Under the pieces are notes generated by a model. It saw only the letters and a list, made by a program, of their open reading frames with translations, had not been told where the DNA came from and ran no database searches. A stretch of 64,000 bases of DNA, taken from positions 171,058,001-171,122,000 of the forward strand of contig OX597816.1 in NCBI GenBank assembly GCA_951406725.2. The letters run 5' to 3'. This DNA is from Octopus vulgaris. Taxonomy: Eukaryota. Position numbers and translations under genes: made by a program. This document shows positions 14,587 through 60,640 of this stretch, piece by piece. The stretch's first letter is position 1, and the number at the start of each line of letters is the position of its first letter.

Positions 14587-15780
14587 TTTTAAAAAATGAA
14601 AAATAAATCTTTTCCAGTTGCATGTATATTTTCCACTCCACTGCTTATTTCAATGAATTATCAGTTTTGCTGTTGCCATCAGTAATTTTACAAATACACG
14701 CGTAGACGTTACTCATTCCAAAGAAGAAAACCTCACACAATTAAACCAAAGTGAGAGCTTGTGGGGGTGTTCGCTCTACCTGTTAATAATTGCAAACAAA
14801 CTTCCCTTAAATAGGAATATATTTGATAATGTAGTCCTAGATACACTGCGCCTGAAAGAATGGTGAGATGATCAGGGCTGTTCCTTCGTGTTTACCTAGG
14901 GCTCGACAACAACAAAATTTCTACACACACGTTTTATAAATAATTTCACATTTACTAAGAATACTACTTTAATATAAATGGCTGAATCTAACGTATACCG
15001 TCTTCTAGACACATTGTGGCTCCGTTTAAATACACATACATACATTCCACAGTTTTAACTTAATTCTGTTAGTTAATCTGGCAATTATATATCTAGTTAA
15101 GGCGATGAGCTAGCAAAGTCGTCACAACACCGGGCAAAATGCTTAGCGACATTCGTCTATCTTTACCTTCTGTCTTTAAATCCCACGAAGGTCGACTTTG
15201 CCTTTCATTCTTCAGGGCAGTTGAACATTGAGATCAATTTAATCGACATATCCTCTCTCACGAAATAGCTGGCCTTTGTACCAGAATTTGAAATCAATTA
15301 ACATCAGGTCATCTTCTCTCATTAGCGATTTCAGTATTCATCTCATTATGCTACTACAAGACACGGTTTCTTTCTCTGTACATTACCTCTCTAAATGTCT
15401 CCATATGTACCACACAAAGCCTAAACGAAGTCATATAATCCAAATTCCTATACTATTATTACAATTCTTGCTATTCTTTCACCAAACATCGATGTTCTCT
15501 CCAAACATTGCCACCAATAATATGCTGAAAAAGACTTTCCTTATTGGGCACAAGATCGAAAAATCTCTGTTCTATATCAATCCAGACAGTATAAAAAACA
15601 CAAACACACGCGCGCACACACACATACACACACACATATACATATATATATATATATATATATATATATATATATATATATATATATATATTATATATAT
15701 ATATATATATATATATATTATATATATGAAAAAACAAGTCAAAAATAGAAAATGCTAAGATAATTTTATAGTGAATCTTT

Positions 15781-15818
15781 CAGTACCGGTTTCGGTCATT
15801 TTGAGACCTTTTCAACTG
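15781..15818 (-). ncRNA. Type I hammerhead ribozyme, U3:A8 variant (inverted arm copy)
   Basis: Exact reverse complement of 20182-20219. Confidence 0.72.
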
Positions 15819-16495
15819 TAACGATTAAATAATTAAATTTAGAAAAATTAGAAGAAAAGTTTTTTTAAAAGAATATTTCTATAGTAGTGTTCAGATATAA
15901 GTAGCATTCTGCCTTTCTCTGACTCCCTTGTTTGCACTTGTGTGTTCGAGGTCGTTTTGAGTTCTTGGTAGGGTAGGTGAAGAATAAGGAGGCTGATGTG
16001 GAGAGGGGGTGGGGAAATCTGGGAATGCCTTGATGGTCGTATTTTGAATGGTCAGTGGCTGACAGCAGTCGCAGTTCAATTCAGGAATTGTTTATGGAAT
16101 TTGCGTAGGCTTTATACTGAAAGACATTAGTGACAAGGTTAAGGGGTGGAAGGTGGATAAGTAGAAGAAGAAGAAGAAGATGACGATGTTGATGATGATG
16201 ATGATGAAGAAGAAGAAGAAGAGGAAGAAGAAGAAGAAGAAGAAGAAGAAGAAGAAGAAGAAGAAGAAGAAGGAGAAGGAGAAGATGATGGTGATGATGG
16301 TGGTGATGATGATGACGACGATGATGATGATAATGATGATGATGAAGAAGAAGAGGAAGAAGAAGAAGAACAAACAGAGAAGGGAGAATATGAATGGGTG
16401 AAAGTATAGCTGTGATGGGGATGATTAGTAATGGATTCTATGGAGTGTAATATTTGTGTGTGTATATATTTCTTTTATTCTAAAGTTGAGGTATA

Positions 16496-16924
16496 TTAAT
16501 TGTTTGTCGTAGACCCGTTAAGAAGTGGCTTGTATTTTGTAATAAAGAGATTTTCTTTACTTATTCGTTGTCTCGAGGTTGTATCGTCCCTAAATTGGTA
16601 GAGGGGGAAAATCCTGAAGTTTGGTGTTTTTTTGTTGGCGCAAGTATCTATGTGTTGGCTAAAAGCTATTTTTCTGTTTTGGGGAATTTTTATCTGGGAT
16701 CTGTGCAGGGCCATTCGTTTACGCAAACCATTTTTTGTTTGGCCTATGTACTGCTCTTGACACCCGGAGCAGGTTAGTGAGTATATTAGGTTCTCTGAAG
16801 CACATGTGAAGTTGCTTTTCACTGTAAACCGTGGTCCCTGTTTGAAGGAGAACTCTGATCCCTCAATTAGATAGTCGCATATCCCGCAATTGGGTCTTCC
16901 ACATTTTTTTACTGTCGGCTTCTG
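16496..16924 (-). pseudogene. GIY-YIG endonuclease domain copy in the inverted arm
   Basis: ORF 16496..16945: CGRPNCGIC...NLIYSLTCSGCQEQYIGQT...LRKRMALHR. Confidence 0.85.
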
Positions 16925-17229
16925 AGTTACCAAAAGAGTTACCAACGAAATCTCCGCCCCATAAACCGGTTAAACAACCATGCACAACAAACCCACTCCA
17001 CTTACAATGATTACCAACGAAGGCCTCCTAGAACACCACACCCGAATATGGGATATCGGGATGCTCTCCTCAATACTGCTCCAAGAACACACACCATAAA
17101 TCACAACAGGAGACCCCACATCAACAAAGAACAACTATATAATAGCTACCGTCCCAACCACCGCATTCATTTTTTAGACCCAATACGCAAACACAGAGAC
17201 ACAAGATAGCACCAAACAAGCAGGAGGAA

Positions 17230-58689: not shown

Positions 58690-59207
58690 TAATCAAGATA
58701 CTAAACAGTACACGGCATTACTAGAAATAGTAGTCAAACGGCTCAAGAACCACACTTATATACACACTGGTGAATTCGAGGAAAACGAGAATATAATACG
58801 CCATCTTACCAATAGCGAGTAAAATTCGCAAATGAGTTGCAGAAGTACTCATATCACGTGATTTCGAACCCTGTGATAAACACTTAGTCTTTGTCAGTGA
58901 GTATTCCTGCCGAGGGCTAAAATACTCGCGTCACCATGTATGTATTGACCATATAAACGCAGCGGCAATTTCAAAATGATCGAAATGAATAAAATTATAA
59001 AAATATATAAAGATATTATTAGTCAGAAATCACGTGATATGAGAACGTTTGCAACTCATCTGCGATTTTTACTCGCTATTGGTAACATGGTTTTTTATAT
59101 ACTCGTTTTCCTCAAATTCCCCAGTGTGTATATAAGTCATTTACTGTGGTTCTTGGGCCGTTTGACTCCAGTTTCTAGCAATGCTGTGTACTCTAGTACC
59201 TTGATTA
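58690..59207. mobile_element. Foldback MITE with ~178-bp imperfect TIRs
   Basis: TA|TAATCAAG...GTCAAACGGCTCAAGAACCAC...TCACGTGATTTC versus its reverse complement at 59025-59207 ...CTTGATTA|TA. Confidence 0.82.
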
Positions 59208-59504
59208 TAAATTAATAATTTTAACTTTTTGGTTATTTTATGCTTATATACACTCACACATATATATATATATATGGAGAGAGAGAGAGGGAGAGAGAGA
59301 GTATATATACATGTGTATGTATGTATAATCTATCTATATATGTGTGTGTGTATTTATGTGTATGTAATTGTTAAGTTTATTTCAAGAACAATGATGTATG
59401 TAGGTAGGTATGTATGTGTGTATATCTGCAGATTTGTATATGTTATGCTTTATCTATGTATTCTCATGCCTATAGTTGCATATATAGACATGCTCATATA
59501 TATT

Positions 59505-60075
59505 TAAATGATAAACTTCTGGAAAGTTTTACAGATTTTTACAGTTCCAGTGATGGATTGGAGCCGTAGTCTTCAAGTCAACTTTCTCCTTTCTGGTTTT
59601 GAGAAGCCTAATTTCTCAAGATTGGTATCTAGGCAGTGTGTTACATATCACGTGGCTCCAATAATTACAGGTATAAACCTGAACTTGTAATCTGGAAAGA
59701 GTAACTGTAGATTTCCCAAGGCATTCTCTTTTTCACTGATCTTCAGCTTCATGTTAACATCCACTGGCCAGCTAATTTACACAACTGTACACAGTTTCTC
59801 TTCTCTATCTCAAATCATTATATCAGGTCTGTTGTGCTTATATTTTATTGAGGTTTACACTAGGGCATTCCACCATTACACCATTTCATTATGAGTGACC
59901 ATGGATTCTACCATACTGTGGGTTCTTATTTCTTTGTCCTCAGGGTTATCCTTCCGACGAATTTCATTATAGAGTATCCTAGCTACAACATCATGTCTCA
60001 TCGGACAACTGCTTATGATGTGGGTGATATCTTCGCTGTTAACTCCACAAATTCTACATCGGTTGTCAAATTTTA
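59505..60075 (-). pseudogene. R4/Dong-like LINE restriction-like endonuclease domain
   Basis: CRICGVNSEDITHIISSC..RHDVVA...HNRPDIMI*DREEKLCTVV*IS.P...FIPVIIGA. Confidence 0.85.
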
Positions 60076-60350
60076 TTGCATCTCAATCCCTTGTATGTAT
60101 GTATGTATATTTGTATGTATGTATGTACTTGAGGTGCAAAAGAACATATAGATAGAAGGTACATACTATAAGTTCTCCGACAAAAACAAATGTTTCAATT
60201 TCAATGTCAAGTGCAGGGATGCGGGATCCGCAGAAACAAGAGTTGACTCAGTAATGTAGTATTCTAGCTGTTTTATAAATAGGCATAATGCACAGGCCTA
60301 CTTCTAATTTTCCCCTATCTCAGAAGCAGAAGTAAAGTACTAAATGAGGC

Positions 60351-60640
60351 TAGAAAATGCTAAAATAAATTTTAAAAACATTTCAAAGTCTAAATGACTG
60401 AAACCGGTACTCTTTTACTTGTTTCAGTCATTTGACTGCGGCCATGCTGGAGCACCGCCTTTTGATGAAAGGCAAAGTCGACCCCGGCAGAATTTGAACT
60501 CAGAACGTGAGGACAGACGAAATGCCGTTGAGCATTTCGCCCGGCGTGTTAACGTTTCTGCCAGTTCGCCGCCTCCGTACTGAAATATTTTTTATAAAAT
60601 TATTTTAGTATTTTCTATCTTGACTTTTTTCCATATCTAT
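60351..60640 (+). mobile_element. Miniature remnant of the Neptune PLE 3' end, split by a chimeric SINE (60412-60576)
   Basis: GTCTAAATGACTGAAACCGGTACT + GTACTGAAATATTTTTTATAAAATTATTTTAGTATTTTCTAT resembles 20193-20275. Confidence 0.65.

Follow-up and report, generated by a model that had tools for sequence, protein, structure and literature searches.

The window analyzed here is a stretch of 64,000 nt from Octopus vulgaris (contig OX597816.1, positions 171,058,001 to 171,122,000), and the subject is a set of hammerhead ribozyme motifs that lie beside its (TA)n microsatellites. A sequence-only reading had listed five intact type I hammerheads and a decayed sixth, and had taken them as several independent ribozyme-bearing families, autonomous as well as non-coding, that are moved into TA repeats by the reverse transcriptase (RT) and GIY-YIG endonuclease (EN) of Penelope-like elements (PLEs). 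All six coordinates and the stem III sequences were correct as it gave them, and the assignment of the motifs to the PLE type was borne out: the hammerhead pattern is real, lies beyond chance and is correctly tied to PLEs. The motifs probably mark the 3' ends of PLE insertions, namely one full dead element of the Neptune/Nematis type, a decayed relative, two likely truncated ends and one likely retrozyme that was likely copied by the same kind of enzyme. The full element was found at 15720–20310 with the following parts, where pLTR denotes a pseudo-long terminal repeat (pseudo-LTR), UTR an untranslated region and ORF an open reading frame:

15642–15719 (no strand): (TA)n array, left flank of the PLE insertion
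15720–16928 (minus): inverted 5'-truncated PLE arm with the GIY-YIG coding part and the 3' UTR/pLTR, from alignment to 19097–20280
15781–15818 (minus): hammerhead in the inverted arm, identical to 20182–20219 (descriptor, covariance model)
17146–19526 (plus): broken PLE ORF with N-terminal region, RT, linker and endonuclease (Pfam, frames against P0001)
17687–19159 (plus): RT (PF00078, E 5.4e-7)
19068–19526 (plus): GIY-YIG/CCHH endonuclease (PF01541, E 3.1e-5)
20182–20219 (plus): type I hammerhead (descriptor; covariance model E 1.7e-5)
20281–20310 (plus): one-sided tail (3' end) of about 30 bp, located between the internal short TA run and the flanking array
20311–20423 (no strand): (TA)n array, right flank of the PLE insertion

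A PLE-type RT was thus combined with a C-terminal GIY-YIG domain, in which the CCHH pattern comprised two Cys lying between LIY and YIG, followed by a pair of His. The linker that joins the RT to the EN (CX4CX2C, EN-frame residues 19–27) conformed to the Neptune/Nematis form CX2-5CxxC. The inverted 5'-truncated copy and the one-sided tail represent a pLTR arrangement. Close to the 3' end lies the type I hammerhead, which combines a U3:A8 core with a helix I of 3 bp, a helix II of 4 bp, a palindromic ACCGGU helix III and a GUA cleavage triplet. Judged by these sequence features, 15720–20310 is a single dead Neptune/Nematis-type endonuclease-bearing (EN+) PLE. Its ORF was damaged by frameshifts, which split it over frames, by an Asn in RT motif A (SFNV) and by a 49-bp tandem duplication at 19029–19137. 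Naiad was rejected because the EN is C-terminal, and a DNA transposon with terminal inverted repeats (TIRs) was rejected because the supposed TIRs hold the endonuclease coding region and correspond to the inverted PLE arm.

Since 15720–16928 is an inverted copy of 19097–20280 (1172 matches, 12 mismatches and 25 gap columns, i.e., 99% identical), the hammerheads at 15781 and 20182 represent one pseudo-LTR. Five independent families were rejected because these two motifs belong to one insertion. At the octopus substitution rate of 0.0036 per million years (My) (PMC13282606), the 1% divergence between the arms would correspond to roughly 1.4 My. The window RT was 46–62% identical to the best 120 RT proteins, many of which carry GIY-YIG and several of which are from molluscs. 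In a quick tree, which holds unnamed relatives and no named Neptune reference PLEs, it clustered with P0001 and two Octopus bimaculoides proteins (Shimodaira–Hasegawa-like approximate likelihood ratio support, SH-aLRT, of 99), within a clade of 19 rows in which the zinc-knuckle linker is common. Of the 24 public runs listed, 19 contained at least half of the sampled words of the element.

The Neptune/Nematis-type EN+ PLEs described by Craig et al. (2021, PMC8557442) share with this element the order of RT, CX2-5CxxC linker and GIY-YIG/CCHH endonuclease, the inverted 5'-truncated copy, the 30–40-bp one-end tail, the hammerhead near the 3' end and the preference for microsatellites, which for Neptune/Naiad PLEs is biased to (TA)n. 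In contrast to what the accessible text of that study describes, the window element is a broken copy of a cephalopod family, Neptune or Nematis, that is unnamed in the literature searched, and both of its ends fall at element-encoded short TA runs. The paper on Neptune in killifish contained nothing on targeting. For O. vulgaris, 31 recently active Penelope-like families have been reported in a paper whose accessible text does not mention ribozymes (PMC13282606); its repeat library may hold the families described here.

Hammerheads were also sought with a slightly relaxed descriptor in 80 metagenome loci that encode a related RT. They were found in 24 of these loci, in 23 on the RT strand; among them were U3:A8 cores (L030, L050) and ACCGGU palindromes, and L050 has G at position 17. 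Six of the 16 loci with at least 40% RT identity had a match; three of these six had a run of at least five TA units 52–119 nt later, while among the other three one contig ended 47 nt later and two ran on, the numbers being small. In the 26-row clade without the linker, none of five sense-strand matches, again a small number, was followed by such a run. Across the hammerheads of different PLE families, 46 two-sided changes were counted versus 13.6 after shuffling. This covariation is partly by construction, as the families were picked with a pairing descriptor, and it is therefore no evidence for the window islands described below.

A bipartite 3' end consisting of a T tract, a short internal TA run, a 30–40-nt tail and a TA array (window 20268–20311) was frequent in the PLE clade. 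It was seen in L003, L004, L008 and L082, and L081 stops at the first TA run. L001, L002 and L007 retain the short TA run, beyond which, on visual inspection, a further tandem copy seems to follow; the run is therefore regarded as element-encoded. An RT scan of viral contigs gave no confirmed relative of the window RT, and a scan of prokaryote genomes gave two short contigs. The short PLE-bearing contigs L081 and L082 stem from prokaryote genome bins (SUP05, Bacteroidota) and are probably animal contamination. Several PLE proteins were labelled as proteins of Thiodiazotropha or of Solemya symbionts.

Hammerhead motifs and TA arrays

The type I descriptor (C3:G8 or U3:A8 core, helices I and II of at least 3 bp each, helix III of at least 2 bp) was applied to both strands and had been written after the motifs had been seen. 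It returned five matches in the 64-kb window, which were exactly the five intact motifs. By chance, 0.32 matches per window were expected from 60 local dinucleotide shuffles, or 0.12 with a fully self-complementary stem III, and the reversed window gave none. An independent covariance model was built from 11 hammerheads of related PLE loci only and gave eight matches at E ≤ 2. The 15776/20177 pair scored an E of 1.7e-5; the matches at 30581 (E 0.17) and 52273 (E 0.3) scored at the level of four other apparent noise matches, and the 41405 motif was not recovered by this model. The extra matches at 31438, 33612, 48485 and 15195 fail the type I descriptor and were taken as noise; three of them were viewed in context. 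Rfam gave nothing at threshold in the window: Hammerhead_HH9 matched the 15.8k/20.2k pair only, at 22.9 bits where the gathering score is 52, and matches to miRNA families were dismissed as microsatellite artefacts.

None of the four stem III sequences folds alone, and their self-pairing as dimers amounted to -8.3, -1.7, -5.8 and -10.7 kcal/mol. The four stem sequences had been called unrelated, and this was confirmed, with none of six island pairs showing kinship above shuffles on either strand. The claim of several independent ribozyme families holds insofar as four unrelated sequence families are present, one of which (52086–52528) is high-copy, non-coding and retrozyme-like. It fails insofar as 15781 and 20182 are identical copies in one insertion, the sixth motif is a decayed relative, and the segments 30511–30720 and 41363–41640, which had been regarded as independent non-coding elements, have no terminal redundancy and resemble truncated PLE 3' ends.

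A (TA)n array of at least eight units was located 66–214 nt downstream of all five intact motifs and, in the split copy at 60k, 65 nt after its 3' half. The 64 kb contain 20 arrays of this length, so defined; 6.4% of window positions have one within 250 nt, and about 1% have TA arrays on both sides within this distance. When oriented sites were drawn at random, four of four had a downstream TA array in only 9 of 200,000 draws. The statement of the sequence-only reading that each segment ends in (TA)n, or has it on both sides, applied to the downstream array at every motif, whereas the 52k segment had TA at its 3' end only. The order hammerhead, T-rich tract, TA array was the same in all window cases and in the PLE relatives.

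Two motifs were located in short islands between TA arrays:

30511–30720 (plus): 210-bp island between the TA arrays 30483–30510 and 30721–30824
30585–30619 (plus): minimal hammerhead (descriptor; covariance model E 0.17 only)
41363–41640 (plus): 278-bp island between the TA arrays 41315–41362 and 41641–41694
41405–41495 (plus): hammerhead (descriptor; not recovered by the covariance model)

Both islands are non-coding, and neither contains an internal direct repeat, i.e., the tandem or terminally redundant unit of a retrozyme. The 30585 hammerhead has a 4-bp helix I, an extra base after A9, a 3-bp helix II, an ACGU palindrome and a GUU triplet, a layout shared with the PLE-linked motifs in L067, L078, L079 and L080. 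The 41405 hammerhead has a 6-bp helix I, a long helix II with an insert of about 40 nt, ACGAUUGU as helix III and a GUA triplet. Hammerheads in PLE pLTRs have been described as mostly single dispersed motifs and were ascribed to truncated PLEs (Cervera & de la Pena 2014, PMC4209133). The minimal type described there has the same U3-A8 core with an additional base after position 9, a short helix I and a palindromic helix III, and is likewise highly diverse in one genome; the 41405 motif differs by its helix II insert, and octopus is not mentioned in the accessible text. Both islands are likely solo 5'-truncated 3' ends of other PLE families in existing TA arrays.

The 355-nt unit at 52k

The fourth sequence family is of a different kind and lies beside an RT fragment:

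51749–52075 (plus): decayed RT fragment of a different PLE family (C-rich), 29–33% identical to the window RT, multi-copy, abutting the 355-nt unit
52086–52528 (plus): 355-nt non-coding unit present 1.25 times, retrozyme-like family
52275–52319 (plus): canonical-type hammerhead (descriptor; covariance model E 0.3)

The segment 52086–52173 recurs at 52441–52528 (88 nt, 87.5% identical), which gives the 355-nt period, and (TA)33 follows 3' of the unit at 52527–52592. The unit has the size and composition of a retrozyme monomer, for which about 170–400 nt and a GC content under 45% are typical, with 355 nt, a GC content of 0.44, a longest stop-free frame of 88 codons and strong self-pairing. Its fold of -134.6 kcal/mol (z -8.7) was matched by none of 100 shuffles and places the hammerhead at the tip of a long rod. 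In the hammerhead, a helix I of 6 bp is followed by U, loop 2 comprises 6 nt with A as the last, and helix III is self-complementary; this matches the canonical layout, including its loop 1/loop 2 contact bases. The helix sizes of the canonical layout were taken from PMC4209133. With this layout and GUC, an NUH triplet, at the cleavage site of the family, the hammerhead is of the canonical retrozyme kind. The window copy itself reads GUG at the cleavage site and has a mismatch at the base of helix II.

Contigs from public runs, in four of 24, were aligned at 80% likeness onto 51900–52526, a stretch that includes 186 nt of the RT remnant. From two DNA runs, 7503 and 6152 contigs matched, as is characteristic of a repeated family. 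Two runs guessed to be RNA gave 314 and 147 contigs, which show no strand, ends or level. In all four runs the cleavage site read GUC in 91–99% of the depth, a quantity that is neither a copy number nor a truncation profile along this region. Therefore, the family has GUC and the window copy is damaged.

The contigs cross both junctions of the unit, and both junctions are ordinary family sequence; the unit is therefore either circularly permuted or tandem, or else linear (A-B-A). Joints that go back by 355 were rejected as proof of tandem arrays, because 1.25 units are already present in the reference and identical joints would come from a linear A-B-A element. Strand inversions accounted for 8 of the 15 joints listed (47 in all), at different places, and three were common to both DNA runs. 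In other copies, the RT remnant is followed from 52075 by different sequence (a loose end). In each DNA run, 67–68 contigs continue past 52525 with TATTGCTT and then with AT-rich letters of low agreement; this continuation may point to a preferred 3' end. The 41k island ends, at 41631–41640, in the same 8-mer TATTGCTT just before its TA array; the 8-mer occurs seven times on both strands of the window and is a lead only.

Retrozymes have been described as passengers derived from PLEs (PMC7229834; bioRxiv 10.64898/2026.07.22.740005), and in coral, mussel and axolotl their repeats are cut and circularized (PMC7229834). Compared with the non-LTR retrozymes of Cervera & de la Pena (2020, PMC7229834) and of Li, Clavereau & Pollet (2026, bioRxiv 10.64898/2026.07.22.740005), the family has a similar non-coding unit (355 nt versus 350–390 nt in mussel), a GC content under 45%, a canonical type I hammerhead, strong self-pairing, thousands of copies and co-occurrence with PLEs. 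It differs in that the window copy is a 1.25-mer with one damaged hammerhead, and in its 3' end in (TA)n and its inverted junctions, which the accessible parts of both sources do not describe; no cephalopod appears there. Literature searches found no paper on a cephalopod hammerhead or retrozyme, and the supplement of PMC7229834 might list cephalopods. The 355-nt unit is, as far as its sequence can tell, most likely a non-LTR retrozyme copied by PLE enzymes. For the earlier proposal of PLE mobilization into TA repeats, a PLE with RT and GIY-YIG and with (TA)n on both sides is indeed present; for the 355-nt family there is no more than a hint of TA targeting.

Origin and mode of insertion

The sequence-only reading implied that the islands at 30.5k, 41k and 52k are each complete, independent, fixed-length non-coding ribozyme elements, all mobilized by PLEs into TA. 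This appears quite unlikely. The 30.5k and 41k islands are indeed non-coding, unrelated to each other and flanked by TA on both sides, a setting found at about 1% of window positions, and the 52k family is high-copy and non-coding; but TA on both sides equally results when any 5'-truncated copy inserts into a pre-existing array. Neither of the two islands shows terminal redundancy or a stable fold, and their hammerheads are of the minimal or long-helix-II type of PLEs and not of the canonical retrozyme type (PMC4209133, PMC7229834). It is very improbable that the 30585 and 41405 motifs are chance matches whose TA neighbourhood reflects a microsatellite-rich genome. Such a view would account for model scores that are at noise level or absent, for the missing Rfam match, for single copies in the window and for the 20 TA arrays; yet five matches were seen where 0.12 palindromic ones were expected, both motifs have TA on both sides in the same order as true PLE ends, and their helix II defects, as read from the sequence, are at sites fitting CpG decay.

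For the 52k segment, the competing possibility is that the unit is no self-propagating retrozyme and represents either the pseudo-LTR of the C-rich PLE, whose copy here would have lost internal sequence, or a linear element bounded by terminal repeats of 88 bp. A PLE RT remnant on the same strand ends about 10 nt before the unit, the window copy has one hammerhead, no listed contig has two, and retrozymes have been reported as pLTR-derived (bioRxiv 10.64898/2026.07.22.740005). Nevertheless, this origin is considered unlikely, as RT-remnant copies elsewhere run into different sequence at 52075 and as the unit is closed on itself at a period of 355 nt, shows canonical loop 1/loop 2 features and has a rod-like fold. 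It also has the size and the GC content (44%) of mussel retrozymes (PMC7229834), and over much of its length the summed depth, although not a copy number, exceeds that of the RT remnant.

If the hammerheads mark the 3' ends of PLE insertions, the GIY-YIG domain of the PLE protein, which is present here together with the RT, would nick AT-rich DNA, here with a (TA)n bias that matches the TA flanks observed. The RT would initiate at either of two internal RNA sites, which are separated by about 30 nt and lie 3' of the hammerhead, leaving the observed one-sided tail. Priming is likely aided by pairing between the nicked microsatellite and short TA runs of the RNA, because both ends in this clade fall at short element-encoded TA runs. 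Early termination would give 200–300-nt stubs, which would retain the hammerhead because it is copied first, and a template switch would yield the inverted arm, which is observed. The 355-nt unit, with its family status and fold as found here, would be transcribed as a multimer, cut through the paired palindromic helix III and circularized, by analogy with PMC7229834; a PLE RT copying the circle more than once round could then give the 1.25-mer.

Several observations weigh against this account. At its 5' end, the 52k copy lacks TA and adjoins the decayed PLE RT fragment instead. Core position 4 (52282) carries C instead of U in 25–58% of the depth in all four runs. A C at this position would be inactive by canonical hammerhead rules, and the variant represents either an extensive subfamily whose core is non-canonical or numerous dead copies. 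None of the contigs listed contains two hammerheads, and the contig data agree also with a linear A-B-A element. Inversions are not unique to PLEs, since they also arise by twin priming of L1. The islands 30511–30720 and 41363–41640 fold no better than shuffles (z 0.19 and -1.47, respectively), and neither has a second copy in the window. Furthermore, no copies of the 30.5k, 41k and 52k islands were found among the 80 metagenome PLE loci or in pattern scans of viral contigs.

The purified Poseidon protein of Anolis (Frangieh et al. 2024, PMC11167929) offers a comparison in vitro. It nicks AT-rich DNA, its RT starts at two internal sites that bound the tail, and a hammerhead is present in the pLTR, all of which resemble the window element. 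Poseidon belongs to a different clade and requires no RNA-DNA homology for priming, whereas the ends of the window element fall at short TA runs. In vitro, the Poseidon hammerhead is assisted by protein, and insertion can proceed without it. These properties also argue against TA pairing and against a needed role of cleavage.

A further proposal, possible but doubtful, is that the 355-nt family would be a retrozyme, the first from a cephalopod, dispersed in thousands of copies, whose scars (lengths beyond one unit, inverted junctions and a preferred 3' end in TA-rich DNA) would indicate insertion by a PLE enzyme, and that Neptune-type elements, unlike Poseidon, might reach (TA)n by pairing short TA runs of their own RNA with the nicked microsatellite. 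If this is true, insertion-level evidence would become available on which machinery moves animal retrozymes, a partner so far argued from co-occurrence and sequence kinship. The high-copy dispersed family lets insertion scars be counted directly, and it is a small circular-RNA candidate in a lineage for which literature searches found none. The remainder is mostly ordinary: PLE hammerheads, the (TA)n bias of PLEs and the link between PLEs and retrozymes are all published, the window elements are new members of those kinds, and the useful part is the 355-nt family.

Decayed relatives and other repeats

The sixth motif was found in a split segment near the end of the window:

60345–60411 (plus): decayed 5' part of a pLTR related to the 15.7–20.3k element, with the hammerhead 3' half
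60412–60576 (minus): repeat of the short interspersed element (SINE) type that interrupts the hammerhead at its cleavage site and is flanked by a 5-bp duplication (60407–60411 and 60577–60581)
60577–60662 (plus): remainder of the 60k pLTR and its (TA)9 flank, 82% identical to 20214–20280 over 67 nt

The 5' core of this hammerhead is not recognizable. Taken together, its alignments indicate that 60345–60662 is a decayed relative of the 15.7–20.3k pLTR, split by a SINE-type insertion. The part 60345–60384 matches, imperfectly and in inverted orientation, the sequence immediately 3' of the cleavage site (score 50, reached by none of 2000 shuffles), but its direct alignment to the pLTR upstream region gives a score of 51; it is AT-rich and ambiguous. 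The SINE-type repeat is abundant (60412–60460, 43235, 48885, 40545, 4801), and its 3' tail, a small hairpin followed by GAAAC-AA-GTA, resembles a hammerhead 3' half without the 5' core. At 60k, it was inserted beside a near-identical stretch of the decayed hammerhead.

A further hammerhead remnant, at 5510–5641, had been missed by the sequence-only reading. It consists of GAA and an ACCGGU palindrome with a GUC triplet at 5524–5533, has no recognizable 5' core and is followed by a T-rich tract and, 67 nt downstream, by (TA)21. A PLE RT remnant that is 58–59% identical to the window RT lies on the minus strand at 4845–5217, and the two together may be another decayed inverted insertion.

Fragments of other transposons were located at 174–914, 6172–6549, 22179–23014, 27409–28514, 29681–30160, 37375–37860 and 60683–61490. 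They include Tc1/mariner-like (helix-turn-helix match at 37375) and L1/Tx1-like (zf-RVT at 27412) sequences, and others have no Pfam assignment. A repeat of about 430 bp that resembles a miniature inverted-repeat transposable element is present in three copies of 91–93% identity (32668–33114, 34955–35378 and 35862–36295); it has terminal inverted repeats of 29–31 bp, and one copy holds a (CCCTAA)5 run.

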